A stretch of DNA of 64,000 bases from Cetorhinus maximus (GCF_964194155.1 NC_135894.1:2356001-2420000); one strand, 5' to 3'; positions 13,633 to 57,396 are shown, numbered from the stretch's first letter. The notes: generated from the sequence alone by a model not told the origin. Numbers and translations: made by a program.

Positions 13633-13823
13633 ATGGAGAGGAAAGGTCAGAAATTGAGAACAATTGATTGCAATGTTCCAACAATAGGACGGAAGTTATC
13701 ATCTTGGATTCACCCTCTTTCTCGAGTTGATTCGTGAATAATATTAGCAATTCGGATATGATATACACTTTACATTATTCAATTATTTTTACTATCCTAC
13801 TGTGGCTATTGTTGGTGTCCATG
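13633..13823 (+). pseudogene. GPR139-like GPCR pseudogene copy A, exon 1 (N-terminus and first half of TM1)
   Basis: ATG 13633 MERKGQKLRTIDCNVPT..., in-frame TGA stops and a +1 shift, then YYPTVAIVGVH-G|gtaag donor at 13824; upstream sequence aligns with 44830-44950. Confidence 0.75.
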
Positions 13824-14284
13824 GTAAGGCTCTCTATTCAGATAGTAATTCATGGAGCCATGTTTAAATGTATTAATGTTCCTGTCATTGACTTTGCCCT
13901 GTTTGCTGCTTTTGAGTTTTTCTGTTGAGCCCCTGTATCCACTAATTAAGTCTACCAAACACTGTTAACTGTGTTCGTGTTTCTGTTTTTGACTATTCAC
14001 TTTCCCCTCATTGTTCTTGCTGTAATTCCTGCGAAGTCCCTATATCGAGCATTGCGGTCTATATCCATTATATTTGGAACCTGGAGGCCATTCTCTCCAT
14101 TTCCACTCGGTTCCGTATTCACTGACTCCATTCCTTATCTGGCACTCTGGTCGATATGTGAGGCGGAAACACGTTGCTTAAAACTTGTGATTTGTCTTTG
14201 AACCTCAGCTGATCCCATGCCCACTTTATCCCAAATCCTGTGTACAATCAATTACTGATTATGAACCTCAGTTTAACTCCAGCT

Positions 14285-14600
14285 GTCACTGTGACTTCCA
14301 GACTCAGCCATTTCAATTCTCTGCTGACCACACTCTCAGAAACACATTTGCCGAAACAACGACCAAAGTTCTGCTGCCCATACCTGAAGTCACACCAGAA
14401 ACCGTTCACACACCATTCCTTTGCTCCCTAAAATATATCGCTAGCTTCTTTAGCAATGCCTTAATTTTAATATTTCCAGTGATAAAATCCCTCCATGGCA
14501 TTGCACCGCTGATTGCCCAAATATATGTCTTCGCACAAAGCAGCTGTTGTTCACATTTCGTTTGATTCCCTCTCACCTGACTCTCTAATTGACATGTGTT
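14285..14600 (+). mobile_element. L2-like LINE 3' fragment
   Basis: acttccagactc..ttcaattctctgctg, ccttaattttaatattt..aaatccctccatggc resemble the L2 ORF2 C-terminus. Confidence 0.5.
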
Positions 14601-15239
14601 TTCTTCCTTCCCGAGGTCCTCTTTTCCTTACCTTCCGAAAATTACGTGTGAGCTGTACATCTCACCTTGTTCGTCAGATAAGCCGCCGGTGCATCGTGCA
14701 TAGGCTGGTACAGCGAGGCAGTGTCTGAATGTGACTCAACCAGCCGTTTCACCAAACGTAGCAATGGCTGAATTTATAATTCCATTCTTGTGTTTGAATG
14801 CTTTCTGTGTCTTCATTCCTCCAATGTGTGACATTCCCTTTCCACATATATCTGCAAATTGTTGTCCATTATTCATTTGTATAACTTCCTGTTAAAATTC
14901 CATTTCTATCCTTCTGTGTCTTCCCTAGGATGGGTTTTGGGTCCCATAGGCTCACTGGTGCTTGTGTGCAGAGTTCAGAAAAGATGAATTCCTGCGGGTG
15001 TCACTGCTGGAATCTCCCACTTGGTTCTCCATGTTGCAAAGTCTGTTTCAGCAGCTTCGTGAAGATTCTTTAAATATTGGTGTGTCCCTGTCCATTGTAT
15101 GCCTGTGTTAATTACTGCCAGCGAATCGTATGTTAATCAGCGAGAGAAACCAATTTTTTGTTATTATTTAAAAGAAAGAAAAACATCTAGCTTGCAACTT
15201 AAGGTCTATTACTGACTTCTAAAACTGCCATTTTAGGGG

Positions 15240-18200
15240 AGGTGCTGCGGGCGGTTTTCTGTTGGATGTGTTGTGAACTGCTGCGCACTTTCAGGGAGGA
15301 CAGAGGATTTGATTACCCAACTCTGGCCGAACTATGGGAAATTAATTCACAGCGCACCTAGGTCTGTATCATTTCCAAGAAATGGAGCAGAGACTGCAGA
15401 TAATGGAAGCTCTGTAAAGAGGGAGGTCGATGGGGTGCTTTGCAATATCCTCTCCGGATTGTCACGACCTAATTAACAACCTACATCTGAACAAGAAGCA
15501 GCGTGTTAGGCGACTCTGATTAAAAAAGGAGGTGGTCACAGTGCTGCGTCTCCTCCTTCAAAACGACCTGGAGCCTCAACCAAGTGTGAGGGCAGGGATT
15601 GTTGTCAATGGCCGTTAAGGTCACAGTTCCATTGAACTTCCATGGATCTGGATCTTTCCAGAGTGGGACAGGTGACATATCCATCTCCTCCCAGTATGCT
15701 TTACAACGATGGATGCAGTAGGTGATATAAACCATCTATGCTGGGAGAACTGAATGCAATGTTTTCTCCCTCAGCGGAGAGAAGCATGAGGAGAGGCCAT
15801 CTCGTTTTACAAGCATGGCATACGTGGCTCTGCTGGGCCCCCATGTCAACGGAGAGAGGTAAAGGCAATGAACGAGCTTTCACTCCAGGAATGTAGAGTT
15901 GCTATTTGACCATGCACAGTACATGGATTTGATGAAGGCCCTCAATTCTGACAGCAGCTATGATGCATTCATTAGGGAGCAGACAGCCATTCCTACCGTC
16001 TTTGGACTTCCACGAAGTAGCAAAGGGTAGCTTATCAGAGATGAATCCATTGGGTTCACTGTCGAAAAGTTTTGCCCTTTGAGATCCCGATCTTATCAAG
16101 CACTCTCCAACAGCCTCTAAGGGTCTTGCGTCAACAAAATGTCCTCTCCGCCTCCTCCTTCTACTCCTCCTCCACCTGAGGAGCTTTCAGGATTCCTGGT
16201 GATAATGCTCAAATTTCGCACCAATCCACACTGCCATATATTTACGCACAAATAACACGTAGAGACTGAGAGCATTAGAACCGTCAGCAACATCGTGGAG
16301 TGGACATCGGTGTGATGATGCAACGCTTCTGATTCCTGAAGCGCTCTGAGTGAACCTTCCAGTACACGCTGTAGCAGGTGTTCAAGTTTCGGTTTCCTAT
16401 GCACCCTTCAGTTCTTCACCTTAATGAGGAGACAGGCATTGTCACCAGGAATCCGGTGGACACCTCTCGGTGTAGAGGAGGAGATGGAGGATGAGGCATA
16501 GAGGACATTTCCTGGATATCTTTGAGCCGGAGAGTCTATCGGTGAATGCCTGATAAGAGTCCGGAACCCAAAGCACAACACTTTCCACCAATCAACCTCA
16601 CATTACCCATCCTTACATCAATCTCAAAGAATGCATCCATTTGGCCACCTTTCTGTAATAAAATCCAGAAGCAAGAACCTTTTTTATTAACATATTTATA
16701 CAACAACATATCCAATTAAACAAAGAACAGCGCCTCCCCCCCCCCCCCCACCTCCCCATGTTTCCTTTCTTGTCGGCTCCCTCGAATTGCCTTGTGCTCT
16801 TACACAGCGCTTCTCCAGTGACTGCAGCATGGCTGGTGGAATGCCGCTTACGTTCAGAGGGGAAGGCTGAATATATTCTTGCTGGACAGCCTCGAGCAGC
16901 TCTGGGGTTGAGGGCTCAGAATGGGGCGGCGGCGCCTCGACATGGCCAGCAGCATTCTGGCTAAGGGGGGTGACAGCAAGAGTACTGACAAATTGGCATT
17001 AAATGGAGAACAAGTGCTGTCAACCACAGAAAGGACAGCAGGTTCGAACTCCATGGAGTCACATTACCCTCACGTGCTGGAACCTGTGCAATCCTATTAA
17101 TCAGCTGGAGCACAGGTTGCTGTGCTGCTGAGAGAATCTGAATGCCCCTTTGAGCACTGAGATCCACAGCCATGATGACAGCAACCTGAGCCTGCATGGC
17201 AGCAAGCATGGATCTCATGAGCGCAGTTTGAGCTCAAATGTGGCACTGAAATGTTGGATGGTTTCAGCGTGAGCTTCAGCGGAAGTTGAGACAATGTTCA
17301 CCAGATATTGTGTCACAGCTGGGCCCGCTACAGCAATCAAGGTGTTATCCGCCATTTCCATATTATTCAGCAATGTTTTCACCTGAATCCTATGTATCAG
17401 AATTCGTCTGATATCTCACCATCCGATAATCTGGCACACGGGCTATCCGTTCCCACTGGCCTGGCTGCTGCAAACTGGCGCTCGGTGATTTATCACGGAC
17501 ATGTTCTAACTTTGCAGCAGACTTCCATTTACAAACTTTGAAAATATTTGGACTGTTGTTTATAACTTCCAGACCAAGAGATGGAGGTTCATCATATGTG
17601 ACGTGCTGCTTCACACACTCTCTCCATCGTCCACTTCCTCTGTCGTCACACAGCACCACCTTTCTCTGCCCCTTCGTTACTCCAGAACCCCCACTCATTC
17701 GCGAACCCCTTCACGCTGTCGCTCTCTTCTGGAGCTGAAGTGTCTTGGATCCTGGCAGTTAATTGGATCGCATAATGTCAGAACGAGTGGGTTGGGAATG
17801 TCAGGGGAATTGCTGGTGAGTGGGATATGGAGTGCGGTAGAAAGCAAGAGGCCCATGGATGCAGCATTTGCACCTTGTACATCATCCTAGGCAGCAGGAC
17901 AAGGGTTAGCTGGGAGCTCAGAAGGCGCATAAGGCAGGAGTATAGTATCATCCAATATACTGTCAGTGACATCGGATGCTACAGGCTCTGTCAAAGCCGT
18001 TCCCAAGACACAGAGAACCATCTCCTCCCTCAGGCTCAGGAGTCGATGTCTCCCCTTGTCCTTGCCTGTTCTTTTCAGCTTCCTGTGATTAAGGAACCAC
18101 ATTTTCCCTCAATGGAGAGAAGGTAAAATGTCAGTATTCCAATTCGTGTGCTCCTGGAGACAGGAATGGTGTCAGGAATTGGCAGGTCTTTGGGTCACTT

Positions 18201-18290
18201 TTACAGTCATCTGCTGGCGTGCATGTGTACAAATAAGTAAATGACGCGGGCTGGCACTGAGCACCACCAACATGCCAGCCCCTGAATTTT
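15240..18290 (+). mobile_element. PIF/Harbinger DNA transposon remnant (transposase + ~15440-16560, probable second ORF on - ~16750-18130)
   Basis: LLQNDLEP..AVKVTVPLNFHGSGSFQSGTGDISISSQ (15550-15700), SSYDAFI, IGV..QRF, acidic tail; HARBI1-like DDE transposase. Confidence 0.8.
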
Positions 18291-18291
18291 A

Positions 18292-18800
18292 TTTTTATTA
18301 TTTTCTTTTAATTCATTCACGAGATGTGGGCTTCACTGGCAGGGCCAGCATTTATTTCCCACACGTAGTTGCCCTTGAGATGGGGATGGTGATGTGCATT
18401 CTTTGTCCGCAGTAGCCAATGTGGAGTAGGTAAACCCATAGTGCTGTTAGTGAGGGAGTACTAGGATTTGAACCAACGACTTTGAAGGAACAGCGATACA
18501 TTTCCAAGTCAGAATGCTGAGTAACTTGGAGGGGTACATACAGGTTATGATGTTCCCATGTATCTGCTGCCCTTCTTCTTTTAGCTGGCAAAACTCATGG
18601 GTTTTGAATGTGCTATCGAAAAAATCATGGTGAAATCCTTGTAGTTGGTTCACGCTGCTGCTAATGTGTGTCATCGGTGGAAGGAGTGAATATTATTCGG
18701 CTTGCTGCAAATCATGAGGGCTACTTCGTCCTGGACAGCACTCAGATTGTTCAGTATTATGTGCGCTGCATTCAAACAATTCTGAAGTGTTCCATCATAA
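18292..18800 (-). mobile_element. 3' end of the second LINE family (tail shared with the SINE)
   Basis: T-rich start then attcattcacgagatgtgggcttcactggcagggccagcatttatttccc..gcccttgaga. Confidence 0.8.
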
Positions 18801-18919
18801 CTGAGGGTGGGGCTGGGAGCGTGCAGCTAAATTGGGGTATCTGACACACAGGTATCATAATTGGGATATAGTCCCTCCCTTCTATCAAACACAGGTCATG
18901 AGATGAAATGAGGCAGTTC

Positions 18920-21545
18920 TGAGCAGTGAGCTCTTAGCGTGAGCAATCCCAGAGGTGGAGCTTTTCTGAATGGAAAGGGAGTCGTGTGTGCAAGGAACTG
19001 TAAAACGCTCTCTCTAATTTAGCTAACTGTTTCTATCACTAAGCCTGTCTGCTCCATCGGTTTATCACAGTAGACTAGTCAAGAGGCATCCTGTCACCGC
19101 CACAATAAGAATCATACGTTACAGATAATAGCCCAGGCATTCCTGTCACCAGCCCTGTCTAGGCCCAGTCCCAGGACAACGCAGGCCCAGCAGAGGTGGC
19201 GGCGCTGTTGTATACAGTCAGGGCTAGGCTACCGTGGACGTCCTCAACATTGACTCCAGCCCAAGGAAGTCTCATGGCATCAGGTTAAACATGCGCAAAG
19301 TAAACCAAAGGTGATGACCATGTATCACAACGCGCCCAATCCCAACTCAACCCGCAGTCAGATGATGAACCAGTGTTTCTCCAAGTTTGAACAACACTTT
19401 GAGGGAGCACTGATAATTGCAAGGGTACAACTTGTACTCTGGGTGGGGGATCGCAAGCTTCATTACCAAGAGCCCATTTGGTAGCACCATTTCAGGCAGA
19501 GCTCGCCGAAAACTAAAGAACGTTACAGCTAGACTAAGTCTGAGGCAGGTGGTGAGGGAATCAACCAGAGGAAAGAAACTTACTTGACTTCATCCTCACC
19601 AACCTGCCTGCCGCTGATTCATCAGTCTATGACAGTATCGCTAAGAATAATTGGCGCACAGGCCTTGTGGAGACGAATTTCCGTCTTCACGTTGAGGATA
19701 GCCTCCAATATGTTGTGCAGAACTACCAGCGTGCTAAATTTTATTGAGTGCTAACAGGCGTAGTAGATCAGATATGAGCTGTGGCCTCATTAAACTCCAC
19801 AACCTACCATTGCCATCAAGACGCGGGGTCAACTGGTTCAAAGATGAGTGCAGGAGGCCATGGCAGTATCGGCACCATGAAAATGAGGAATAGACCAGGC
19901 CAAGTTACAACAGATGACTGTTAGCGTGCCGAACAGCTTAAGTAACGAATGATAGAGAGAGCCAATCGATCCCACAATGATTGAATTACATGCAAACTCT
20001 TCAGCCCTGCGGCATCCCATCGTGAATAGTGATGGACAAGTAAGCAACTTACTGGAGGAGGACGCTCACGAAATTTCCAAAGGTTCAATGATGGGGTTGA
20101 TAGGACAAAAGTGCGAAAGATGGCGTTTAATTACTTGCAAGTATTTTGCATCTCGCCCTTCTGCTGAGGTTCCCAACATTATTGATGCCTGTCGTTTCGT
20201 TCCACGTGATATGAAGAAATGGCTGAAGGCACTGCATCCTTCAATGGATTTAGGCAATTCGAATGCTCTTCAAAACAACTGTTGCATTGTGTTCAAGAAA
20301 CAGCTGCGCATGAGCCAAGCTATGTAGAGGTGGTTTAGTGGTGATCTTGCTGGACTAGTCATTCAGAGGACCAGACAAATGCACAAGAGGCGTGCGTTGA
20401 AACCCCACCACCGCATGTTTTGTAACGTGATGTCAGTTAAAAGAAATCAAAATTGACAGCAAGCCTCAATGATCATGATAATAAAGGCATCATCGATTGT
20501 ATTCAAACGCCATTTTGGTTAAGTAGCCGCATTGAGGGAAGAACATCTGCCGAGTTTGTCTGGCCTGAATGTGATTCCCGTTCTGCAGCAATATGGGTGA
20601 CTCGAAAATGCGCTCTGAAATGGCTGAAAAGGGCAATTATGGGAGGTTATCATTGCCTTGCCAGAGACACACCCAGAGTATGACAACATTAAAAATAAAT
20701 TATGTTCAAGTACAGCTACAAAACTGGCATCCCCACAGCAAAGTGGAAAAGTGCCCAGGAATGACCCCGCACACAGAAAGAAGGCCAAATCCAAACCTCC
20801 CAATTCCCGCCTCATTAGTGTACTCTCGATCATCAGCAAACTGATGGATGGGGTCATCGACATTGCTATCACAATTATTGCTTAATAATAAACTGCTCAC
20901 TGACACGGAGTTTGGCTCACTCAGTTCCTGACCTCATTAGAGCATTGGTTCACACATGGACAGAAGAGTTGAACTCCAGAAGTAAATGGACAATGATTGC
21001 CCTTGACATCAAAGCAGCATTTTATAGAATGTGACAACAAGGAGCTCTAGGGAGGCTGGAGTTGATGGGGATCAGGCTGCAAACTCGCTGCCGGTAAGAG
21101 TCATATCGAACACACAAAGAAAAATGTCGGAGTTTGTTGGAGGTCAGTCATCCCAGCTCCATGACATCGCTGCAGGGGTTTCTAAGGTTAGTGTTCTAGG
21201 CCCAAATATCTTCACCTGCGTCATCAATGACCTACAGTCCATCATAAGTTCAGAAGTAGGGGTTTTCGCTGATTATTTGCATAAAGTCTTGCAACATTTG
21301 TGACATTTCACATACTGAAGCAGTCCCTGTCCCAGTGCAGGAGGTTCCGCACAAATCCAGGATTTGTCTGACAATGGGAAGCAGCAGTCTTGCCAATTAA
21401 GAGCCAGGAAACCCGCATCCCCAACAATAGAGAATCTAACCATTACAAATTGACATTCAGGGGTGTTACAATCGGTGAATACCCCGATAACAACATCCAT
21501 GGGGTTACCATTAAACCAAACCTAATCGGATTTATTATATCCTTA
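18920..21545 (+). mobile_element. Body of second LINE family (APE + RT; CR1/L2 group, clade not certain)
   Basis: LDFILTNL ~19583, LISVLSIISKLMDGVI, ALDIKAAF ~20998, VSKVSVLGPNIFTCVINDL and FADY ~21180-21277. Confidence 0.8.
20326..20700 (+). mobile_element. tRNA-derived SINE with 5-bp TSD, inserted in the LINE
   Basis: A-box-like ggtggtttagtggt, B-box-like gttgaaacccc, LINE-type tail, A-rich end; TATGT at 20321-20325 and 20701-20705. Confidence 0.8.
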
Positions 21546-23140
21546 CATCAGAGCAGAGCAAGTCACTCGAAAAGGAAATAATGAGATTGCAGAGACAACG
21601 TGTTCCCGCAAATGTGAATGGTTGAACCAAGACGTTCGACAAAACCTGGGTGTCGAGAAATGCAAGTTATTCGGTAAGAAATCAAAGAAACAGTAAAGCT
21701 TATGCTAGGTAACGAGGGCTCAGAACAGCGGACGCCCCATAAGAGTATTCAAAGTTCTGTGGGTTATTGAAAATGTAATTTGGAGAGCGAAGTGTAGGCA
21801 TGAGAATAATCACTGGCATCGAAAATAACATTAATTCCCAAATGGGATTTACAAGTATGTTAGTGGCAAGATGATACCCAGGGGACTAGTAGAGCACATT
21901 AGGTATCCAAGTGACAATATTAATGAGTAGAGGTAAGATAAAGGTACGTTTTTAAAAGAGTGCTTTGCATCGGTACCCACTATCGAGATGGATGATATAC
22001 GTATAGTAATAATATGTATGAAGAAGACAATTGCACATTGGATGCATGGCAATTTGATACGCTGGATACAAAATTAGCTCAGTTGTAGGAGGCAGAGTGT
22101 GATGACAGAAGAATGATTTATTGAGTGTACGCCAGTGTCCAGGGGAGGACCACAGGGATCTGTGCTCGGTCCTCTATTATTTGTCATTTATATAAACGAC
22201 GTTTTTGACAATGTGTGGGATGGTATTAGTACGTTTGTGGGTTGCACAAAGATGGACAAGGTGGTTAACTGTGAGTTTGATTGTCTTGAGCTACAGGAAG
22301 ATATAGACGGAATAGTCAAATAGGCAGATACGTGGCAAATCGAAGTTTTCCGTGAAAAGTGTTACATGATACACTTCGGAAGGAGTAAATTGACAAGGAA
22401 GTACTCAATGAACGGCATGACACTAGGAAGTTCTGAGGAACAAAGGGATCTTGGCGTGTGTGTCCATAGATATCTGAAGGCAGAGGGGCATCTGAGGGGG
22501 GTGGTCAAAAAGGCATATGGGAGACTTGCCCTTATCATTTGAGGCATATGTTACAAATGTAGAGAGTTCACATGAGAGTTTTATTGAAACTTTGTGAGGC
22601 CACAGCAGGCGTATTGATTTGTAGTTCTAGCTGGATCATTATACAAATGATGTGATTGATCTGGAGTGGGTGCAGAGGAAGTTCAACAGGGCGTTGACTG
22701 GGATGAAATATTTACTTTATGAAGGGATGTTTGATAGAGTTAGGTCGTTTTCGTTGGTTCAGAGAAGACTAAGGGGCGAAACTTCCGAGGTGCACAACAT
22801 AATGAGGGGCATAGGCAGGGTGGATAGGGTACAAATTCTTCCCCTTAGTTGAAGTGTCGGTCATAAGGGTGCATAAGTTCAGGGTGAGGGGCAGGAGGTT
22901 TAGGTTGGATGTGAGAAAATGTTTTTTTTATCCCGAGGGTGGTTACGGTCTGGAATGCACTGCCTGGGAGGGTGGTGGAGACTGATTGGCTCACATCATT
23001 TAAAATGTACCTGCATGAGCAAATAGCTGTGGGCCAAGTGCTGGTAAATGGGATTAGGTAGGTAGGTCAGGTGTTTCCCATGTGTCGTTTTAGTCTCGAT
23101 GGGCCGCAGGGGCTCTTCTGCACTGTGTGATTCTCTGATA
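21546..23140 (+). mobile_element. CR1 LINE, internally deleted, RT to 3' end
   Basis: GPQGSVLGPLLFVIYIND (22147-22200), LEWVQRKFNR, terminus gggctcttctgcactgtgtgattct. Confidence 0.85.
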
Positions 23141-23430
23141 TGTGTTTATCTTTGCATCTTTGTTTCGTATTGTGCATATATGTGTGTGAGTCTTTGAGTG
23201 TGTGTGTGTCTGTGTGTTTGATTTCTGTGCATATGCATTTCTGTGAGAACCCAGCAGCGTGCATGCATATTTTTTTTGTTCTTGCGTTTGAGCGTGTGTG
23301 TCCATGTGGGTGAGTATTTAATTTTTGGGGGGTTTTGTGTCAATCTTTTGACGTGTGTGCTTCTTTGAGCGCATGTGTTTGCTCATTAGTGTCTGTTTGA
23401 ATGTGTTTGTTTGCATTTGTACATGTGTGA

Positions 23431-23881
23431 NNNNNNNNNNNNNNNNNNNNNNNNNNNNNNNNNNNNNNNNNNNNNNNNNNNNNNNNNNNNNNNNNNNNNN
23501 NNNNNNNNNNNNNNNNNNNNNNNNNNNNNNNNNNNNNNNNNNNNNNNNNNNNNNNNNNNNNNNNNNNNNNNNNNNNNNNNNNNNNNNNNNNNNNNNNNNN
23601 NNNNNNNNNNNNNNNNNNNNNNNNNNNNNNNNNNNNNNNNNNNNNNNNNNNNNNNNNNNNNNNNNNNNNNNNNNNNNNNNNNNNNNNNNNNNNNNNNNNN
23701 NNNNNNNNNNNNNNNNNNNNNNNNNNNNNNNNNNNNNNNNNNNNNNNNNNNNNNNNNNNNNNNNNNNNNNNNNNNNNNNNNNNNNNNNNNNNNNNNNNNN
23801 NNNNNNNNNNNNNNNNNNNNNNNNNNNNNNNNNNNNNNNNNNNNNNNNNNNNNNNNNNNNNNNNNNNNNNNNNNNNNNNNN
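23431..23881. other. Assembly gap (451 N)
   Basis: Run of N. Confidence 1.
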
Positions 23882-24479
23882 GGGTGGAGGAGAGACAGAG
23901 AGTTGGAAAAGATTAACTTATTTTCTCCGGGATTATGCTTTCGTGGCAAGGCTTCCATTTTTTTTCCCATTCCAAATTTCCCTTGAGAAGTGTGTGAATA
24001 ATTAATTTATTCTGTGCGTGCACATGTGTGTGCGATTATATGTGTGGTTGTGTCTATTCTTTGCTTTTCAATGTGTGGGAGTTTCCGTGAATGTTTTTGT
24101 GCGTGTTTGTGTGTGTTCCTGTGTGTGTGTGTGTCAGAGATACAGAGAGAGAAGGAGCGGGAGAGGTACGTATTTCTGAAGGGACTGGTGCATTTTTGGC
24201 TAGGAAATCATTTATTTCCCGTTGCGGTTGAGAAATGTGTGTGCGTGTGTGTGTGAGCGTTTTCGTGAGAGTGTGTGAGTGAGGATGTATGAATTTCTGT
24301 ACGTCTGTTTTCGTATGTATTTGTCTGCGTTTATGTTTCTGTGTGTATGTGTGTCATTGCTTCTATGCATGTGATCCTGTGTGGGATTGTGAGTGAGCAT
24401 GCCGGTGCGTTTATGTATGTGTGTGTGCGTGTGTGTGTGTGTGTATGTATGCGTGTGTGTGTATGTATGTGTGTATGTA

Positions 24480-24917
24480 TGTGCATATGTGTTTGAATGT
24501 GTGTTTCTGTATTTGTGTCTGCGTATTTTTTTTAGGCGCTATTTTATGTCCGTGCCGGAGGGACGTGACAGCGTGCAACTGTATGTCAGCTCAGTCAATT
24601 TGTATGTGTCCTTCTGTATGTGCATATGTGTGTTCACGTGGATGCCTGTGGGTGCAATTAGGTTGTGTGTGTGTGTGAATGTGATTGTCTGTGTGTGTGT
24701 GGCTCGGTATGTGTGATCCTTTATCTGTACCAGTGCATTTACGTGTGTGTGTGTGTCTCTGTGTGTGTGTATGTATGTCTGTCTGTGTGTGTTTGGCATA
24801 TATATATAGAGAGTCTTGTCTGCATATCTATGTTTGTGATTTTATGTGTGAGTGCGTGTGGGCGTTTGTGTGAGCCTGTGCATGTGTTATTGCCTGTGTG
24901 CATGTGTGCCTGTGAGT

Positions 24918-24949
<32 letters not shown>

Positions 24950-26118: not shown

Positions 26119-26149
<31 letters not shown>

Positions 26150-26395
26150 AATTGTATATGTGTTTGAATGTGTGTTTCTGTATTCGTGTCTGCGCATCTT
26201 TTAGGTGCTAGTGTATGTCCGTGCGGGAGGGACAAAATGTCCATGACAGCATGCAACTGTATGTCAGCTGAGTCCATTTGTATGTGTCCTTCTGTATGTG
26301 CATATGTGTGTTCATGTGGGTGCCTGTGTGTGCAAATAGGTTGTGTGTGTGTGTCTGGCTCGGAATGTGTGATCCTTTATCTGTACCGGTGCAAT

Positions 26396-26433
<38 letters not shown>

Positions 26434-30443: not shown

Positions 30444-30474
<31 letters not shown>

Positions 30475-35320: not shown

Positions 35321-35321
<1 letters not shown>

Positions 35322-45246: not shown

Positions 45247-45496
45247 GTTAGAGTCCCTATCTCGTTATTTATTAAATAAATCGTTTTTACCTCTTTTTCT
45301 GTTGATGTAATTTAACATCTGGAGAGGCAGCATCCATTCACGTCTGTTCCAGTCAGTATGTCAAGCCTTTATCCACCAGCTCCATTTCCATCCCTGATTG
45401 ATATCTGAGGCTGTTCTCAGACTCCATGCTCCATTTGACCATGAGCTCATTTATCGGACTATATTCTCTCCATCCCAAATTCTGTGGACGACCATG

Positions 45497-48480
45497 ATAT
45501 ATGAAATTAAGGAACACAAGTAGGTGTAGATCATTGAGAGCTTCATTCCCAGTCCACCGTTCAATAAGATGATGGCTCAACTTCTACTTCAACATAATTT
45601 TGCCGCACTATCCCCGTATCCCTTAATGTTTTCTTTTAATATGTTGAAATATATCGATCCCAGTCTTAAAGATGTTCAACAACGGAACCTCCACAGCCCT
45701 GTGCGGCAGAGAATTCGAAAGATTCACCACAATTTAAATAATTTTAAAAAAACATTCCTAAATGGCTTTCCATTTTTTCTGAGACTGTGCACCTGATTCT
45801 AGTACACCCCGGCATGAGAAAGATCCTTCCTAAATCTACCCTGTAGAGCCAGAGAATAAGCTCCCAGACTGTTTTATCTTTCCTCATAGGACAGAACCTC
45901 CATTCCAGGAATTAATTTGATGAAACGTCGTTGCATTTTCTCTATGGCAAATATAGCTCTCCTTTGGTCGAGAGAGCATAACTGCACACCGTATTCCAGG
46001 TGTTGTATCACGAAGGCGAGCACGCACCCCCTCACTAAGGTCCTATATAATTGCAGTAAGACATCTTTACTTCTACATTATGTTAATCTTGAAATGAATG
46101 CCAGCATGCCATGAACCAGCTTCATTGCTTGTGGTAACTGCATGATTCAACCGAAGTACCTTTGAAATTTAGCATTTCGATAAATAACAGATAGCCTATA
46201 TTTCTGTTGTTTTCGTACCAAAGTAGACAGTCTCACATTTCTATTATGTATATTCCATCTGCCATATTTCTTTGCCTACTCGCGTTTACCCTCTAAATCC
46301 ACTGAACGCACCTTTGCCCCCTCCTCATATCTCATACTTCCACCATGTTTTCTGTCATCAGCAAAATTTGCAAATGTTATCGAAATACACTGTGAATAGC
46401 TGCGGTCAAATCTCTGGTCTCTGTGGCACACGCTAGTCATTGCCTGCCAACCTGCAATTCAGCAATTTACTCATGCCTCTGTTTTCTGCCCATTAACCAG
46501 TTCTCAATTCAAGCCAGTATAGTATCCACAACAGTGTGTTCGACACTTGTTTACTAAACTCTTGTGCGTGACTGTATCAAAAGCTTCCTAAACATTTCAG
46601 TACAAAACACTCATCAGTCGCCAATATACCTATTTCGCTTTTTATATTGTCAAAAATCTCCAACAGCTATGACAGACATGATTTTCCTTTCATAATTCCA
46701 TGTTGATTCTGCTCAGTCATACATTTTCCTAAGTGCCCTGTTATCATATCCTTTATAATAGAATCGCGCATTTTCCCTGCTACTTATGTTATGCCCGCAG
46801 GGGTTTATTTTGTTGTTTTCTCATGACCTTTCTTAAATAGTTGGGTTACATTTGCAACCTTCCAATCTGCAGCAGTATTTCAAACTCTAATGCAAATTCA
46901 ATGATGAAGAACGTTGCATCTTCTATCGATATAGCCACCTCCTTCAGCACTCTAAGATATAGATACATTCATATATAAAAACATTTAAATTATGAAACAG
47001 TCTGTCACCCGGGCCTTCAAGACAATCGTTAAGTTCATTGCGGATCTGGCTGCAACACTTCGCCTATCCCCCCTTACTTTTCACTCCATTATTTAATTAC
47101 CACCCCTGCAATGGCAATAAGGTTAGATATAGATATTTATGTTTCAGCTGGAAATTTATCAATTTTTTTGTGGATTCAAACACACAGCTCTCAATTCAGC
47201 TTTTTAACTATTTTTTGTGAAATCCTGCCCTTATCTAATGTCTGCAATAAGTGTCTCTTGCTGCTATACTGTAAATAACATCATCTCTATTACATTCTTC
47301 ATCATTATTATACATTAGGGTCAACATTTATTCCCCTTGTTCATAGGGCATTTAAGAGTTAACCACAATGTTGTGGGTCTGGAGTCATATGTAGGCCAGA
47401 CTAGGTAAGGACGGCAGGCTTACTTCCCTAAAGGACATCAGTGAACCTGATCTGTTTTTGAACAATGGTTATTGTTAGTTATTTAACTCCAGCTTTTTTA
47501 ATTAAGTGTATAAAAAATTTCGACATCTGCCATAGTGGGATTTGTACCCGTGCCATCAGACTCTTTCCCAGCCTTTCCACACTATTAGACTGTGACAATC
47601 CTACTTTGCTAGAACCTCCCCAAACCTATTTCCTTGTCAATTGCCTCTAATTTTGAGAATCTTCTCCTACATCACCAGTTCTTACCTTTATGTATTTTAA
47701 AGCACTCTGCTTCCAAAGTTCTACGACTAGCCGTAATATTGGGCTCAGAACATTTTATGTGAAGAATGTCCAAATGCTACAGCCCCCACATTCCCCAACA
47801 CTGTTTCTATTGCCCCGCGAACTGGAAATAATTTTTTACGTACTGGTTGTGAACCATGCATTAATCTCCCTAATCGTATTTACACTATGCATGTTTACAC
47901 AAAGCTCAGGCAATAATCAGAAGACTCTTACATTTGACGTTCTGCGTTTTATTAAAATTTGGAGTATGGCTCCTCGTCCTCCCAATGCAGAACTTCTAGC
48001 TTATGCCATTGGCGCCAACATGGACCGTCACACCTTTCTCTGCAGCCCTGAGCAACCATCTAGATCCCTTGCACAGGACAGGCAAGACAACTGCTCGACT
48101 ATCAATCTCAGTTGCTAAGAACAGTTTACATCCTTCTTAATATACTGTCCCCTACTGGCAGTACATTCATCCTTTCTCCCTCCACACCCCCCACCGCCCC
48201 CCAGAAACACACACACACTTGGAAGACTTCCTGTACTGTGGCGCCAAGGTCAGCCTGCTCTTCCGAACTGCAACCTTCACTCTTGTCCATACAAGCTGCG
48301 AGAACCTCGAAGGTGTTGATCAATTACATGGGTGAGGTTCCTCTCCACCCACCTTACCCATCCCCTTGCTTTCCTGTCCCATAGTGTCAACTTCCTATCC
48401 ATGATCACTGACCAAGTGATGGCGTGAACTGATGGCCATCTTGAAAAAAGTGTTCTGTCCATTGTACTTGCACCTCGGAG
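45497..48480 (-). mobile_element. CR1 LINE (3' end, RT, deleted middle, ORF1 esterase) in the intron of copy B
   Basis: Reverse CR1 terminus at ~45500, LEYGVQL, RT region ~46300-46960, VGDSILR at ~48140-48165. Confidence 0.8.
47300..47620 (-). mobile_element. tRNA-derived SINE (family of 20326-20700)
   Basis: gtgggtctggagtcatatgtaggccagac..ttccctaaaggacatcagtgaacc..tctgccatagtgggattt. Confidence 0.8.
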
Positions 48481-48959
48481 TTCCCATATGCTGCAGTCGA
48501 GAACATCATTTTTCCTGCCATATTTGTTGTGATAATTGAATGTGTCTTTCCGAATTAATTAATATTGCCCCTCTTAGATGAAATCGCTCTCTCACCAAAA
48601 TTCCGCAGCCTCCGTCAGTATTCTCAAGCAGCAGGCAACGACTTGTATATTTATACTCTCAGTTTTGCACAAGCTCAGAAACCAGTTTATCCTGGCTCCA
48701 TAGCCATGTCAAAAATCAGCACATCCTTCTCAGCAGAGATGCTGAATAAAGATCCATCGGTACCTTAGTTACATCCAGACTCGGCTATTCAAATATTATC
48801 CAGTCCGGACAATTGATCTTACAAAGCTTCATAAGCCTCAGTTCATCCAAAGCTCTGCTGTCCTCAGCCTATTACATGTATTCATCTGTCCTTGTTCATC
48901 AACTTCGAAGTTAGTCGTTTTGCCTTGTTGATTAAAAGCATTAGCTGGAAAGTTTGTGG

Positions 48960-50130
48960 TGGTGCTTTGGATGGTTGTCAGGAGGTTGTTTTGTGAGCTG
49001 CTGCGTATGTTCAGAGAGGACAGGATTTGGTGACCGAACTCTGGGTGACGTTAGGCGACTGTAGTTATAGTGCATCTGGGTCTGAACCATGGCAAGCAGC
49101 TGGAGCTGAGGATGCAAAGTGAGAAAGATCTGTAAAAGCGGAGGAGAGGGCTCTGCCTACCAACTTCACCCAAGGATCCCCAAAAGCACTTTACCAACCA
49201 GAGCTGAGACACCTTCCGTAAAACGACCTGGAACTTCACAACAGGGTGAAGGCTGCGCTGCCAGTGAACGTTAAGTTCAAAGTTTCACAGAACTTCCATG
49301 GTTTCAGAAATTTGCAGAGAGGAGGAGCTGAAATCTCCATCAATTCCAATTATGCTGGCCATCGAGGCATCCCAAGGCAACGGATACCTTCATTGCCTGG
49401 TGAGGAAACATCGTTTTCTCCCTCAGCAGGGAAAAGCAGGAAGAGAGGTTCCATGGCTTCCTAAGGATTGTGTGAATCACGGTGGACTACGTGGCTGTGT
49501 GGGGTCCCCTTGTTAAACAGGAATGCTACGGAAACTGAAAGAACTCTCAATCGAGACATGTGTTTGTTCAAAATATATTCTTTCCTGGGCGGTGGCGTCA
49601 CTGGCTAGTTGCCCTTCATAAGGTGGTCGTGAACTGGCATAATGTACAATTGCTGTGTGATCATTCACAGTGCATCATTTTAATAAATGTCCAGTGTCCT
49701 GACAGCAGCCACGATACTTTCATTTTGAAGAAGTCAGCCATTTCAACCATCTCTAGACCTCAACGAAGAACATTAGGGTGGCTTCTCGGAGGTGACGTCT
49801 ACCCATGTGTACAAGGCTTACTACACACATTTGATAACCACTCCCCACCGCCAAACGAACACACGAAAGTAACAAATGTATAGCGAGAGGAATATATCAC
49901 CCAGGAACATCAGCGAGCAGATGTTCAGTGTGATGAAGCGACTCTCTTGATTCCTGAACCGATCAGCGTGATCCCACCAATACATGCTGGAGATGGTGTT
50001 CGAAATCATGATGTCCTGCTGCACACTTCATATCAGCACCATCATGAGGACTCACGCTTTGTTCCCAGAAATCCCGCTGATACCACAGAAGGAGGTGGAG
50101 GCAGAGCGAATACTTCTCAGATTCCTTCGA
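48960..50130 (+). mobile_element. PIF/Harbinger transposase remnant, same subfamily as 15240-16560
   Basis: aaacgacctgga and flanks align with ~15240-15620; ALPVNVK, GWLLGGDVYP, CCTLH. Confidence 0.75.
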
Positions 50131-50929
50131 CCCAGATTGGCTGTTGGAGTGTGTCTGATAATACTGTGGTTCCAATTGGACAATCTCTCCTTCCCAAAAT
50201 AGGTCACTCATTCTCCAATGTTACATGCACCCGAGCCGCCCCATCAGGCCATCCTCTTGTCCGAAATCCTGTAATAAAAACCAACAATAAAAATAATTTA
50301 ATTATCATCTTAACCCAACAAGGCATACACTTGTGTGTGTGTTTGCATATTACATGTCTTGTGTGTTCCCTTGATGTACCTTGTGTTCCTAAACATTTCC
50401 TTCCCAGGGACTGCAGCATGGCTGGTGGAAGTCTCGTGAATTTCTTTGGGAGAGAATGCAGATGGCTGTGTCCTGTCACATTCAAAAGTTTTGTGTTTGT
50501 TGCTAAAGCCAGAATTTTGTGTCCTCTTGGAAATATGAAAAGTGCCTGAAGTCACCACAACAAGTTTCCTTTTACTCTTTGCTGAAAATGTTGTTCTTGC
50601 AATAGATAATATAGTCCACAAAACATTCAGAGCTTTCTGCAAGAGCACTAGTTTTCTGACAGGGACTGTGTTTGGAGTCCGAATAATCAGCAGCGGCCAC
50701 ATCTTGCAACATATCTGCCAGCAAAAGGGCTTTACTGCTGCCTTGAAACATCCAACATTCAATTAATCATTTACAATTTACCCTTTCATCTTCGGTGTGG
50801 CACTCGGTCACATCCCAGTCAGAGACCTCAGTGGCAGCAGCAGCAGCATTAAGAACGTCGTGTACCTGGTAGCCGGGCCCGTTGGTGGGGTGAAGCTCAA
50901 CGCCGAATGACTACAGTTAGGAGGTGTGT

Positions 50930-51590
50930 GAGATTCAGGCAGTTTCCAGAGCAAACTGTGGACAGAAGCAGACTCAAATACATCGGATTCAGTTCGAGAC
51001 AATTGAGGAGGAGGCTGCGACCTTCCAGGGAGGTCGTGCCTGGGCTGTGTGTCCTTCTCCACAAAAACCTGCAGAAAAGCTTAGACCAGAGATAAGCTCT
51101 GACAGTGACATTGATGATCACTGAGGCTCTTAAAGTTATCGCAACTGGCCATGGTCAAGGCTAATGCCTGACGTGTGTGACACCTCGCAGTGAGTTTTGA
51201 GAGGGTGATCATAATCTGATCGATGACTTTTTTTCAAGTGTGGCCCGATTCATCTCTTACGAATCTGGCACAGAATCCCAGGCACAGGGGGTGACATGGT
51301 TTGCCTCCATCGCTGGCTTTCGACAGGTAAAAAGAGTGGTATACTGCACTCACTTTGTGATAAGGGCACCCACATGGAATGTAGACTGATACATGAACAT
51401 AAATGACTCCGAACCTTTGAATGTGCAATTCCTTTGTGACCGTCACAAGCGGTTATTTCATGTTTGTGCTGTTAGCCTGTCAGTTTTCCCTACTGATTTA
51501 TTCTTCATGAATCTGGACTGTCTCGTAAGTACACACGGATCCCAATGCTGCATGGTTGGATACTCGGAGATGAAGGTTATCCTGTGAGGC
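50930..51590 (+). mobile_element. Another PIF/Harbinger transposase remnant
   Basis: LRRRLRPSREVV..LC, FASIAGFRQVKRVVYCTH, LNVQFLCDRH, GWILGDEGYP. Confidence 0.8.
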
Positions 51591-51764
51591 GGGTTGGGGT
51601 GGGCGGGGCTGCTCACGCTTGTCAGTCATTTCTTTAGCCAGTTTAAAAATAATTCACCAAAATGTCAACTTAGAAAAGTAACAGCAATCTTTTATTGAAC
51701 AAATGGCCTAGAATTAATTTGTGATGAACTCATAAACAGCAGTGGGCAGCTCAGCAGACTGCAA

Positions 51765-52430
51765 CATTTATTAACCAACACAAAACGTTTAACATTGTAA
51801 TGAAAAAGGTGCCAAACTTTATCTCTCTTTAACAATAGAGTATTATACAGGTGCCAGGGAAACAGGTAAATTAATCAAAGTAGTTAGTTTGAATCACATA
51901 CCAGGCACGTTAAAACTTATCAAGTGTTCACTCGAGGTAGCACGTGAATCTGGACCTTGCAAAGTCCCAGCCTGCAAAACTCGGTCATTGACAACGCTCT
52001 GCACCGGAAAACATAGAGTTGTCTGCTTCGCAAAGAGCGTCATTCACTTAGTAGATGGTAGTCCAGCAGCTGTTGATATTTATTTCGCTGTTTGTCCCTG
52101 GGGCCAGGCCAAAGAGCACTGCGTCCTATGCCACGTAGCTGCTCGGGATACGCCTCGATAATAACCACTGTAACTCTCTCCAGAACTTCTTTGTAAGGGG
52201 ACATTCAATACGTTGGTAAAGAACAGACACTTTGCTGCCACTGCTATTTCGAGGACAACGTGCGGAGAGCATTATCTCTGTATATGCAGCAAGTGAGTGA
52301 CAGGGAGGGTCTTTGTCCCAACAAGCCAAACGAAGTTTTGGTGCTGGTTTGGAAATCCTGGAATGAGGGAATCTGAGAAACGTCTTTGACAGTCTGCTCT
52401 GGGTGCCATGGGAGAATATCCACCCTCTTC
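51765..52430 (-). mobile_element. Tx1-type L1 3' end (zinc-finger region)
   Basis: ARCPRNSSG..ECPLTKKFWRELQWLLSRRIPSS..LFGLAPGT..ININSCW. Confidence 0.75.
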
Positions 52431-52449
52431 CTTCCCTACACGTCCTCGA

Positions 52450-53400
52450 ACAAATGACCTTTAGACCACTTCTTGATGAACCTTTTTTTGGTGTTGTCTC
52501 ACTGCTTAAACATATCTATGTTGGGTAGGAGGAATGAGGAAGTCTACTTGCCTGGAACAGCAAACGCGCTAAACCCATCCTTGGTAACTCCTGCTGCAGG
52601 TGTAGCAGATAGGGAGGGACAACTTAACTAGATGTCAGGGCATGTGGGCGTTGATGGGCACAGGAAAACATGCAGGAGGCTATTGTGTCCAGATACCGTT
52701 TGATCCAGCATCACTTCACATGAAGGTTGCCCTGGAACTGTGTGAAGCAAAAGTTGGAAAGAAGAGGTGGGAGCTCATTACACCAAGGACACGGCATTGT
52801 ATCCATCATGTATCTAATGGCATGTCACTCATGAGGAAGGTGTGCTGGATATTGAACGTAGCCTGTCAGGAAAAATTGATAATCACATAGTCTCATGCAG
52901 GTCAGGCCAGGTAAGGATGACACTCTTCATTCCTTCCCGGGCGTTGGAGAGGTTGGGGGGAAGGGAAGGTGTGGAGGGGTGGATGATCTTTTTGAATGGT
53001 GAAGACGAATGGTGAACACATAAACCTCTGTCGCTGATCCCTTCGCCTGTGCACTGAACCCCACACTATGTCCACAATTTCTCACACTGTAGTTTGAGTC
53101 TCTGGGCTGGTGCCAGATGAGTGTGATGGTGACTTTTCGGCCACGCCTACCGCCTGCTGGTGTCCCAGCCCTGACTCCTCCACGGCGACAGGGTCAGCAC
53201 CTCCGGTATCTGTGAGGGAAACAAAATGCTGTCATCAGATTAGGTGATACAGAACATTTTTTATTTCCTGGAGACCTCCTTCCAAACCAACCTGGTACTC
53301 AGTTGCTTCCATTCACTCTCTCCCTGGATGAACTCTCTCATACATTGGAGCTGCACATTATTATTCTCACCGTCGCTGCCAAGCCCAGAACACAGCCCTC
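52450..53400 (-). mobile_element. Probable Harbinger Myb/SANT second-ORF remnant
   Basis: LQCMREF..TRLVWKEVSRK at ~53260-53350 on -, convergent with upstream transposases. Confidence 0.4.
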
Positions 53401-54250
53401 CTCCAACACTGGACCACCGACAGCCCACTTCACCACTGGAATAAGCACCAGGGGCTTTTAAACCTAGTAGAGACTTGCTGTAAATCAAAGGTTTCTTGAA
53501 CGGTCTTCAGCTAATTTGCATTGCCATATCCTCCTCAGATCGAATGACTCGGGGATTTATGGAAACACGACCCTCTGTAGCCCTCGGGAGTTGTGCGGAA
53601 CTTCCCATGCATTGCCTAGAGGGTAAGGTTGATATGGTGCCTCATCGGATCACGGTGAATGGTTATTCCTCCAAGAAATCGACACGGCGTACACCTCAAT
53701 GTCAACCTTTATCATTGGCACTGGTGCTTCACATTGTCCAAGGGCTCACGCTCCTGTACCTTTGATGTGCCTCGTGTTCCCGGTGCCCACTAAAGGCCTG
53801 GCATGCCATATGCGGTGATGCCAGGCTGCATGACCTATAGGGATATCTCCCTCAATTTGGTGGAGCACAGAAGGTCACTGGAGTGCTTGTGCTTTTGGCA
53901 CTGTATCCAGATCCTCTGATGGTCCCCAGCGTACCAGATGTTCTCCGCTATGTTCACACAAGAAGCAACTTCTGTGGTGGCCAGAGGGAACCTGATTCCT
54001 TCAGGAATCAGGATGTCCCTGTGTGTGCTTATCTCCGTAAGAAACATCCCTTGGGACATATGTTTAACTGTGTTTGTGAGTAGATTCAAGAGTTTGTTCT
54101 CGTGCGTTTCCATGTGTTTTGCATCCGATCTTTTTCCACTTATGAGCCAATGTGTGTAACTGTGTGCTTCCGTGTGTGAGTGACTGTTGATATGTGTTTG
54201 TGAGTGTGAGCGTACATTTTTTCTTACTGAACCTCTGTGCCTGAATGTGC

Positions 54251-54591
54251 TTTTATTTATTCGTTCATGGGATGTGGGTGTCATTGTCACTGGCCAGTTA
54301 TTCCATATCCCTAGTTTAGGGGACATATAGGTGTAAACCACATGGGGCTTTGGGCTTGGAATCACATGCAGACCAGTCAATTTTCCTTCTCCAAAGGACA
54401 ATATTGAATCATGTCGTTTTTTATAGCAAACGACAAGTATTCATGGTTCCCATTAGACACTTAATTACCGATTATAATTGAATTCAAATTCTACCATATC
54501 CCGTGGCGAGATTCGAGTCCAGGTACCACGGAACATGACCCTGGGTCTCTGGATTACTAGTCCAGCAGATATCACATGCCAAATCCTCCTC
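54251..54591 (-). mobile_element. Near-complete tRNA-derived SINE
   Basis: Tail ttattcgttcatgggatgtgggtgtc; reverse B box gattcgagtcc; ctgggtctctggattactagtccag head. Confidence 0.85.
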
Positions 54592-54599
54592 TGAGTGTT

Positions 54600-55440
54600 T
54601 GCGTAAGTATCTGTCATTGACTTTATATCTTTCTGCGTGTTTCTGTGGGTGTTTTGAGTCTGCGCTTAAACGTGAGTGTGCGTCCCAATGCTTGTGTGTG
54701 TGTGTCTGAGAGAGACAGAGAAAAAGTGTGCGTGCGTGTGTATTTCAGTGTGTTTATTTGTGTGTCTCTTTGCGTGAGCATGTGAGTGTGCGTTTAAACG
54801 AATTAGCACCTGTATGAGTGTCTGTGTTTGTATGTGAGTAAGCATATGATTCTGTGTGTATGTGTAACCCAAATACCTGCTTTTTTTTTGCATGTATGTT
54901 CGTGAGTGTGGGTGAGATTGTGTTTGGTTGTGCGTCTGTGTGTTTTATTGAATATGTGTGAGAGAGCGAGTGTGTGCCTGTGAGTGTTTGTGTTTCATTG
55001 CATGTGTGTTTGACGCAAATGGTGCTTGACTGTGTGCGTGCTAGTTTGCATTTGTGTTTGTTTTTTTCTCCCTGTGAGTGTTTATGCTTATGTGCTTGTA
55101 CTTTTCGATGTATGGCTGGCCTTCTTCCCGTGTGTGTATTGGTGTGTGCGTTTGTATTTATATGTATGTGTCCCCATGATTTTGTATCAGTTTGTCTGCC
55201 ATTGTTTGTGTTTGTGTATGTGTGTGCATGCGCCTATTTCTGCCTGTGTCCTTCTCTGTTAGTGCTTCTGTGCAGGCGGACATGTGTGCTTATTTCTGCA
55301 TGTTTCTTTGTGTTTATACGTGTGTGCTTATTTCTGCCCTTGCATTTCTGTGTGAGTTCCAGCCTGTGGGTTCCTCTGTGCTGTTCTGTGTGCACGTACA
55401 CGTGTTTGTGTTTGTGAGTGTGTGCGTGTTTTTGTGTCAT
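54600..55440 (+). repeat. TG-rich tract in the intron of copy B
   Basis: Same composition and strand as 23141-33520 but much shorter. Confidence 0.9.
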
Positions 55441-56554
55441 TCTCATATGAGGAAACAACTTTCTTTCCTCCCTCTCCTATGGGATTCGAGACCGGTATTG
55501 TGTCGCTTGCGGTCTGTCGGTCTGAATAGTTAACCGGGCTTTCCACTGTTATTTCTGGCTCCCCCCATCAAAACCGTGTCCCCTCCTATCATTCCTCTTA
55601 CGATCATATTACATTCCTGAGGAACTTGTTGGGAGAATTGAAGAGGGATTCGTGAGTTGTTCATAACTGGAATGTTGAAGTGTGGATCATGGAAAATTGA
55701 CGCCGTGGCAACAGGACAGGGAGAGATATTCTAATGAAAAAAATATTCATAACGTACATTGCATAAGGGAGTTTTGTATGCGTCATCTAAAATACGTTAT
55801 TTTTCTTCAAGAAACAATGAGAAAACCAAAAAGGCCTTCATAGTTTTCAACCAGTGCCTGTAGGACTGTAGAAAAGGGACATGTTCCTGTCTTCCAATTA
55901 GACTAAACTCAGTGCAGATTACATATCTAGGAAAAATAAAAAAAAATATTGTTGCGTCTGTGTTTTAATGGTGGAACTGTTTACGTTTTTCCTCACTGGT
56001 TTTGAAATAAATAAATGTTTATCCTTTCAATGTATTATTAAAATTACAAGAAAGCCTGTTTTGTGACTGTTCTTATAAACTACAGTACTCGAGAGGCTAC
56101 GCCCTCCTCCTCAGAAATACATATGTTTGCATTCAGTAGTGAAGCGGAGAAAATGATAACATATCACACATCTCTCCTCTGTCCAAAAACATTAATAATC
56201 TCAAGTTCTTCCCAGTGACCCTCAGCTCCCCTTAATTCTTGGCTTCTCTCATTATCACTGAGCCCTCCCATCATCCTTTCGCTGCCAAGTCACCATTGGG
56301 TCAGCCTATTACGTCTGACTGTCCCATAAATAACCCTCACTCCCCTTCTTACTTTCTTGCCGTATTTGTTTGTTAATCTATGTTTCCTTCCACTGTTTCA
56401 AGAACATACTGGTATGTTTTATTCAGTTCCACTTATTTCAATACACCAATGGATTCAGTCACGCATTTGACAATATCAGAAAATCCTCAATCAGACTGAT
56501 AACATCATCCCAAGGCTGATGAATAATGTCATTGCTCATTTCCCTTCCTTACAG

Positions 56555-57396
56555 TGAACTTAATCACAATTGTGACACTGAAGGGCAAAAACTGTGTTCT
56601 GACGAAAAGTATCAGTTTTCACCTGGCGGTCATAGCAGTGACGGAAATAGTGGCCATTATCGTGGATCTGATATTGAGAAACATTATGATTGCTTTTCGG
56701 TAATAGTTTGTTTTCCTGCATCCCTTCCTAGTATGTTACGTCCAATCCGTACTGATTTATGCTGCCAGTGAGTGTTCTGTCTGCTTCACTGTCAATTTCT
56801 CCTTTGACCGATTTATGGGCATTTGATTTCCGAAACTAAAAATAAAATATTGCAGCGAGAAAACGGCGATTGTGACTCTGGGAACAGTGACTGTACTCAG
56901 CTGCTGAAAGAACATTTTCTGGCATTTTATGAACAGTGGTCGGTACATTGCCAGGTTTTGTGATATCAGACTCGGTGGTATGTTCTCTCCGTTCTGGGTA
57001 ACATTCGAGTTCCTTTGCAATATTCTAACCCCCTGTGTCCCATTTGCCCAGATTCTGCTGCTCAATGTTTTCACCGTCAGACACATTTCAATGAGCAGCA
57101 GAGCCCGCAGGAGACTCCGGGCTCATAGCAGTGGGGAGAGTCGCAGAGAGCCAAAGATGGAGAGTCGAAGGAAATCCAACATTATATTGTTTGCAATCTC
57201 GGCCAATTTCACACCGTTAAGGTCAACGTTAAAGCTTTATTCTATTTGGTGACTGATGCGGGATTTGGTTTATTGTTCAACATGGTTAGATCCGCCTGTT
57301 CTTGAATTGATTTAAGCCGTGACACAGACTCTGTTCAGACAGCAGTAGAAGAAGGTGCTAAAATATTGCTTTACTCAAATTCTTCATTTACTTTAA
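56555..57396 (+). pseudogene. GPR139-like GPCR pseudogene copy B, exon 2
   Basis: ttacag|(V)NLITIVTLKGKNC..FSFDRFMGI..TPCVPFAQILLLNVFTVRHI..SRARRRLR..MESRRKS; in-frame stops at 56701, 56704, 56824, 56905, 57250, 57313, 57346; 42-bp TM7 deletion relative to copy A. Confidence 0.9.

Follow-up and report, generated by a model that had tools for sequence, protein, structure and literature searches.

GPR139 and GPR142 (PDB 7VUG and 9M42) are conserved single-copy G protein-coupled receptors (GPCRs) belonging to class A; the residues of the GPR139 ligand pocket are described in the cited portion of PMC7318219, and both receptors have been linked to the MIP, FMRFamide, and proctolin receptors in that of PMC8514136. 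Beside them, in the relevant passage of Rinne et al. 2019 (PMC6504862), stand the orphans GPR210A and GPR210B and a third unnamed set, found in coelacanth, gar, and teleosts. Cartilaginous fishes have been called GPCR-poor (cited portion of PMC8455134) and, in the cited portions of PMC10869828 and PMC6368271, are credited with many olfactory neurons and the smallest known vertebrate olfactory receptor repertoire, of 20–62 complete genes. The window examined here, that is, the whole stretch of 64,000 nt of Cetorhinus maximus DNA that was analysed (NC_135894.1:2356001-2420000, contig C16 of a 4.0-Gb genome), contains two class A GPCR pseudogenes of two exons each on the same strand, gene A (13633-34854) and gene B (45072-57396). 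These are worn members of a large receptor family of sharks and rays, annotated as GPR139, whose intact members probably constitute a repertoire of sensors.

Like GPR139 and GPR142, this family exhibits the class A fold (TM-scores of 0.72–0.76 to 7VUI), a phase-1 intron before N1.50, and the residues W6x48 and H5x43. However, it comprises about 1000 loci at around 30% identity to those receptors, both of which have separate orthologs in the same genome, and its main clade, to which the window genes belong, shows an altered P6.50 and an altered NPxxY-type motif in the seventh transmembrane helix (TM7). In the trees described below, the family groups with two fish clades of single-copy genes, and the GPR210 sets resemble these in being orphans next to GPR139 and GPR142, although they are low-copy, the paper contains no mention of a shark (0 occurrences), and the passage presenting them does not include the amphibian and sturgeon gene that is the sister of the family. 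Regarding its evolution, the family is similar to the odorant receptors, trace amine-associated receptors, and vomeronasal receptors of types 1 and 2 (V1R and V2R), since it is large and clustered, with many pseudogenes and a variable outer face, but it is unrelated to them in sequence, possesses a coding intron and a pocket floor that is fixed within each subfamily, and shows no exact Olf1/EBF (O/E) site in the 14 main-clade upstream regions scanned. In this genome, 39 class C NCD3G exons are found, 23 of them on contig C20, and V2R-type exons occur in four of the seven C20 stretches examined. The MRGPR and formyl peptide receptors exemplify how a peptide-receptor lineage can expand into a lineage-specific sensing repertoire of sensory neurons and immune cells; their expansions are an order of magnitude smaller, and the parallel is one of analogy only, with no homology claimed.

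The size of the family is apparent from two non-overlapping TM3 motifs with 938 and 87 exact matches in the genome, compared with 8 and 1 for the reversed controls, which gives at least 1025 motif-bearing loci (9 for the reversed motifs), a count that misses decayed copies, gene B itself being without the motif. When an open piece of gene A served as genome query, 3580 candidates were recovered and all 150 that were scored had E < 1e-39, while an exon 1 query returned 1282 candidates, of which 150 were scored. A protein database search with an open paralog gave 3393 candidates, 1961 of them at E<=1e-10. Of these 1961, the 120 top-scoring ones belong to 10 shark species, with 119 of the 120 labelled ‘G-protein coupled receptor 139’, and all 10 mid-scoring representatives come from sharks or rays. 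Thus, the large lineage-specific family postulated by an earlier note on this DNA, made from its sequence alone, does exist, with at least 1025 motif loci here and database members across sharks and rays; moreover, none of the findings that the note had named as fatal to its proposal, such as only one or two copies genome-wide, was obtained among those open to testing. An uninterrupted exon 2, running from the acceptor to the stop, is seen in 33 of the 67 motif loci sampled outside C20 and in 7 of the 22 on C20; this sample covers 89 of 100 listed motif places and favours loci that retained the motif, whose intactness was required, and openness refers to exon 2 only. A stricter filter based on TM7 (26/67 open) was judged too strict and replaced by profile coverage. 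The comparison of intact copies with pseudogenes that the note wished to see made gives, for exon 2, about one half open in the sampled loci outside C20. The tandem array that it described holds insofar as the copies are clustered, but along the contig the orientation of adjacent loci varies and their spacing ranges from tens to hundreds of kb, so that they form a loose cluster, not a strict head-to-tail array. Elsewhere, contig C14 carries 26 loci of a divergent subfamily within 0.6 Mb (20.7-21.3 Mb), including four head-to-head pairs, spaced every ~80 kb, whose TM3 motifs are only ~1.46 kb apart, leaving little room for two first exons. In another subclade (L016, L019-L024), the copies are numerous, 98-99.9% identical, and located on small contigs, and same-species DNA contigs reach a depth near 600 on its flanks, which hints that the high copy number is real, contig depth not being a copy count.

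This family grew from one ancestor that was not GPR139, and the GPR139 ancestry assumed in the earlier note is largely refuted. Human GPR139 scores 29.5 bits, level with the vasopressin V2 receptor, and the genome harbours one GPR139 (L041/L042), followed at 54% by one GPR142-like gene, at 34% by another single gene (L044), and only then by the family at 27-33%, in an identity ranking from a GPR139 search in which 119 of 2853 candidates were scored. For comparison, true catshark GPR139 is 81.3% identical to that of mouse (cited portion of PMC13200729). In two trees of 72 and 31 rows, both quick searches without bootstrap, the family forms one chondrichthyan clade (support 85 and 98) whose sister is the amphibian and sturgeon gene, with a Shimodaira–Hasegawa-like approximate likelihood ratio test (SH-aLRT) value of 99 in both, and together they join two low-copy fish lineages (SH-aLRT 98 and 99), leaving GPR139 and GPR142 outside. 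A forced clade of the family with GPR139 and GPR142, the grouping hypothesized in the note, is rejected by the approximately unbiased test (p-AU 0.008). The enclosing clade probably matches the ‘GPR210’ orphans of bony fishes. Furthermore, L044 (C5:143968827-143969744), a single-copy orphan labelled GPR139 whose conserved orthologs occur in sharks, rays, and chimaera as well as in coelacanth, lungfish, and teleosts, is probably one of the GPR210 sets. A single-copy gene of this genome is 100% identical to a protein labelled Cetorhinus maximus, which makes a lamniform host probable. In amphibians, a word-indexed search in which absences are weak lists the sister gene as 20 clusters of 66-74% identity, with one cluster for each species listed; in this gene (P0347, P0408-P0427), Asn replaces D2.50 in the five copies aligned, and the Xenopus tropicalis copy is P0411. 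When the pocket residues of GPR139 (E3x32, F3x33, H5x43, W6x48, R6x51, and N7x38) are placed by alignment on the open paralog L004, only two of the six are identical (H5x43 and W6x48), F3x33 being changed to Y and the other three replaced. The note was right, on the other hand, in that the intron in TM1 is shared with GPR139, as the phase-1 acceptor right before N1.50 has the same position in GPR139 (L042), L044, the family loci, and both window genes. This shared intron and the invertebrate neighbours fit the published link of GPR139 and GPR142 to the MIP, FMRFamide, and proctolin receptors (cited portion of PMC8514136). A genome search with the Pfam Srw model returned galanin receptors and further subfamilies, not GPR139.

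Duplication and loss are both recorded around the window. The motif positions of C16 (~1-5.2 Mb) are mirrored in reverse on C20 (~0.4-5.1 Mb), both contigs being chromosome-sized, and for 21 of the 22 loci on C20 a twin exists on C16, with identities of 96.2-99.7%. About 62 kb of the window aligns inverted to C20 (L178-L185), mostly at 96-97%. Since the twin of the window has all exon 2 stops and frameshifts in common with it, the death of the two genes preceded the copying of the block. A difference of 2-3% seems high for two haplotypes of one shark and, thus, the inverted multi-megabase block, at 96-99.7% identity, seems to be a real duplication, the alternative being a misplaced haplotype. 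In three of the 21 twin pairs (L128/L094, L131/L091, and L145/L074), one copy is open and the other broken. Between the window and its twin, the ratio of the proportions of nonsynonymous and synonymous changes (pN/pS) is 0.87 for gene A (27 changes) and 0.53 for gene B (21 changes), counts that are too low to decide on neutral decay. The birth-and-death turnover proposed in the note is substantiated by the twin block, the mixed open and broken pairs, and the purifying selection on open copies. As for the two copies in the window, they most likely do nothing and are ordinary relics.

Selection was examined in 24 disjoint pairs of open loci that are 80-99% identical, using the Nei–Gojobori ratio of nonsynonymous to synonymous divergence (dN/dS), with dN taken over whole-exon dS and intervals bootstrapped over pairs. 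The ratio is 0.33 (0.29-0.39) for helices outside the pocket and 0.39 (0.32-0.47) for inner loops, rising to 0.59 (0.46-0.75) at 29 pocket positions, 0.85 (0.66-1.03) in outer loops, and 1.24, given with no interval, in extracellular loop 3 (ECL3), while the helices of close pairs (n=14) remain at 0.38 (0.27-0.54). The divergent loops of the note are thus borne out for the outer loops, where selection is relaxed or diversifying. Pocket positions were assigned by generic numbering, and the helix limits agree with an AlphaFold model of L004 exon 2, which exhibits seven helices and helix 8 at a mean predicted local distance difference test score (pLDDT) of 77.6. The marks of class A are present, namely N1.50, D2.50, the DR motif, and the cysteine pair joining C3.25 and ECL2. 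Among 14 distinct genes of the main clade, entropy is 0-0.4 bits at 19 of the 29 pocket positions and exceeds 2 bits only at the rim positions 6.58, 7.32, and 7.35, with a nearly fixed floor formed by D2.57, R2.61, H3.28, Y3.33, D3.37, E5.39, H5.42, and W6.48; other subfamilies have floors that differ from this one. Fold comparisons retrieve mostly peptide and chemokine receptors, GPR139 having the highest identity (22%), and none of the 49 fold matches listed is an odorant or trace-amine receptor. The combination of a fixed floor and a variable rim in the main clade points to peptide-like ligands rather than to the logic of odorant receptors.

Conservation extends upstream of the coding region, where a 170-bp block before exon 1, kept by both window genes, has a median identity among paralogs of 0.68, compared with 0.66 at the coding end of exon 1 and 0.48-0.55 in flanks and intron. 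The block contains AT-rich homeodomain-like, Fox-like, and TATA-like words. In a promoter scan of 14 main-clade regions, of which that of gene B was anchored wrongly, a homeodomain-like word occurs in 14/14 upstream regions against 9.6 expected, these regions not being independent of each other. Regarding transcription, sequencing run X1, guessed to be RNA and from another organism, provides 138 contigs on locus L020, nearly all of them in exon 2. The alignment of one contig starts on the final base of this locus's acceptor AG, with 204 unaligned letters upstream. This contig may represent a spliced transcript and offers a weak hint of transcription. On a V2R gene, contigs of the same run fall on two repeats and one 132-nt piece of the TM exon (depth 2.6), the uncovered part being uninformative, so that no olfactory signature emerged, while the DNA-like run X3 covers all 30 bins; run X6 gives no contigs on the family locus.

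With a probability of roughly 0.6, the intact members of the family form a sensor repertoire whose cues resemble peptides or amino acids. Within this reading, external chemosensing in nose, skin, or mouth is a tentative assignment and internal or barrier surveillance a rather doubtful one. It is likely that the family, mislabelled as GPR139, represents an overlooked set of chemical sensors, as suggested by its fast-changing outer surface. This class A family of about a thousand shark and ray loci grew by segmental duplication from its single non-GPR139 ancestor. According to the mechanism proposed, a fixed intracellular face would couple all members to one G protein, which by analogy with GPR139 might be Gq. 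Within each subfamily, a chemical group common to the ligands would be bound by the fixed polar floor of the pocket, and specificity would be set by the variable rim (6.58, 7.32, 7.35, and ECL1-3). The leaning towards peptides stems from the relatives of the family, the MIP, FMRFamide, and proctolin receptors (cited portion of PMC8514136), and from fold matches that are mostly peptide receptors. A bolder formulation, possible but at less than even odds, is that sharks and rays own a seventh, independently evolved family of vertebrate chemoreceptors for peptide-like cues, with hundreds of intact receptors, ten times the known olfactory repertoire, which combine a fixed pocket floor with a variable rim and derive from a lineage of neuropeptide receptors represented in amphibians by a single copy.

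Several observations weigh against a sensor repertoire. Firstly, when a limit of 90% identity is set, only 28 of the 55 open loci are left, and the number of distinct specificities may lie far below that of the loci. Secondly, many copies are 99% alike and are found close to the start of a contig or on a small contig, so that the count is inflated by passive amplification or by duplication in the assembly. Thirdly, the interval for the outer loops includes 1 and ECL3 has none and, thus, relaxation fits as well as positive selection. Moreover, the deep pocket is near-invariant in the 14 main-clade genes, unlike that of odorant receptors, and the hypervariability sought in the buried pocket was not found. 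Amphibians have a single, conserved copy of the sister gene, as expected of a receptor for an endogenous ligand. Finally, an exact O/E site is present in 0 of the 14 upstream regions, and sites with one mismatch occur in 2 of 14, where 1.9 are expected.

Part of these observations would be explained if a few functional receptors for endogenous ligands had been swept passively into subtelomeric segmental duplications, leaving redundant copies that decay slowly owing to low shark mutation rates. Such a process would produce the clustering seen on small contigs and where contigs start, the 5-Mb inverted block common to C16 and C20, and near-identical clades (99.2-99.9%), and it agrees with half of the sampled loci being broken, with an invariant pocket floor, and with a single conserved sister gene in amphibians. 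It is unlikely, however, given the purifying selection on helices that persists even in close pairs and varies by region, the subfamilies common to shark orders and rays, and the upstream block that is conserved like the coding end of exon 1. Alternatively, shark peptides of reproductive, neuroendocrine, or gut signalling could have expanded in parallel and be what the receptors detect, instead of outside cues. About 50% pseudogenes and twins differing in status are rare in receptors for endogenous ligands, and a matching ligand expansion is not known, no search for one having been made, which leaves this explanation quite improbable, even though the ligands of all characterised relatives are endogenous peptides or amino acids and the fixed floor, variable rim, and peptide-receptor fold matches would suit it. 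Duplicates of true GPR139 sensing tryptophan and phenylalanine, compatible with the label on 119 of the best 120 matches, the phase-1 TM1 intron, and the kept H5x43 and W6x48, are very improbable in view of the separate single GPR139 and GPR142-like genes, the 29.5 bits for human GPR139, the rejected clade, and the replaced E3x32, R6x51, and N7x38.

The structure of the two window genes (Table 1) bears out the earlier note in most respects: two same-strand loci of two exons whose exon 1 starts are 31.4 kb apart, the YYP, NLITIV, and DRF motifs as claimed, and both genes dead, A through stops and frameshifts and B through stops and deletions in exon 2. The splice site in TM1 was located correctly, but the intron is in phase 1, so that the preceding G opens a Val codon and no Gly is encoded. 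Gene A has its donor GT at 13824 and its acceptor AG at 33936-33937, while in gene B these lie at 45247 (weak, GTTAGA) and 56553-56554. Searches of the window by tblastn with six shark relatives reached E values down to 1e-83 in exon 2 and 1e-13 in exon 1 of gene B and revealed no third copy. The Pfam 7tm_1 match is weak on the window pieces (E 1e-4 on one piece of gene A exon 2), and 35 other open reading frames of the window gave zero Pfam matches. A rescue by splicing exon 1 of gene B to another exon 2 of the window was rejected, as both second exons are broken, and the long intron was discarded as a sign of death, as distances of 10-25 kb to the nearest exon 1 are found for open loci too.

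Table 1. Features of the two receptor pseudogenes, in window positions (UTR, untranslated region)
Feature	Position	Strand	Remarks
Conserved upstream block, gene A	13430..13600	+	Bounds approximate; likely core promoter/5' UTR; from paralog alignment; words used as anchors lie at 13487 and 13544
Gene A exon 1 (N-terminus to mid-TM1)	13633..13823	+	Stops at 13735 and 13759; frameshift near 13785
Gene A intron	13824..33937	+	Phase 1, GT..AG, 20,114 nt; CA/TG tracts, one N stretch
Gene A exon 2 (TM1 to C-terminus)	33938..34854	+	Four frameshifts at ~34076, 34439, 34528, and 34576; pseudogene
Conserved upstream block, gene B	44700..44870	+	Bounds approximate; from alignment; anchor words at 44755 and 44812
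Gene B exon 1	45072..45246	+	Open frame; worn 42-bp repeat units before it; weak donor
Gene B intron	45247..56554	+	Phase 1, GT..AG, 11,308 nt
Gene B exon 2	56555..57396	+	Seven premature stops; in-frame deletions of 12 nt (ECL2) and 42 nt (TM7); pseudogene

Further features accompany these genes. Long CA/TG low-complexity tracts precede both second exons (23000-33000 and 54600-56000) and CT-rich tracts follow them (34850-35480 and 57540-58430), giving a stereotyped cassette. At the start of exon 1, 42-bp units occur in variable number (up to ~8), most with an ATG and an N-glycosylation sequon (window 44990-45115, loci L148-L177), and the C20 twin of gene B is ~40 bp shorter in this region. 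N stretches at 23431-23881 and 61045-61188 touch no exon.

No account of this expansion was found in the literature searched, a coverage that excluded subscription journals and bioRxiv supplements. The GPR139 label is absent from the supplements of PMC11372145, PMC10529500, and PMC13188829 and from the 12 of the 19 files of PMC12286861 that were searched, and the cited portion of the PMC13200729 supplement lists only the true GPR139 ortholog. The tissue question of the family can be directly tested with existing catshark tissue RNA sequencing data, and the conserved single Xenopus ortholog (P0411) provides a tractable route to the ancestral ligand and its site of expression. Whatever the tissue, hundreds of apparently intact receptors gathered under one automatic label would change the GPCR count of cartilaginous fishes.

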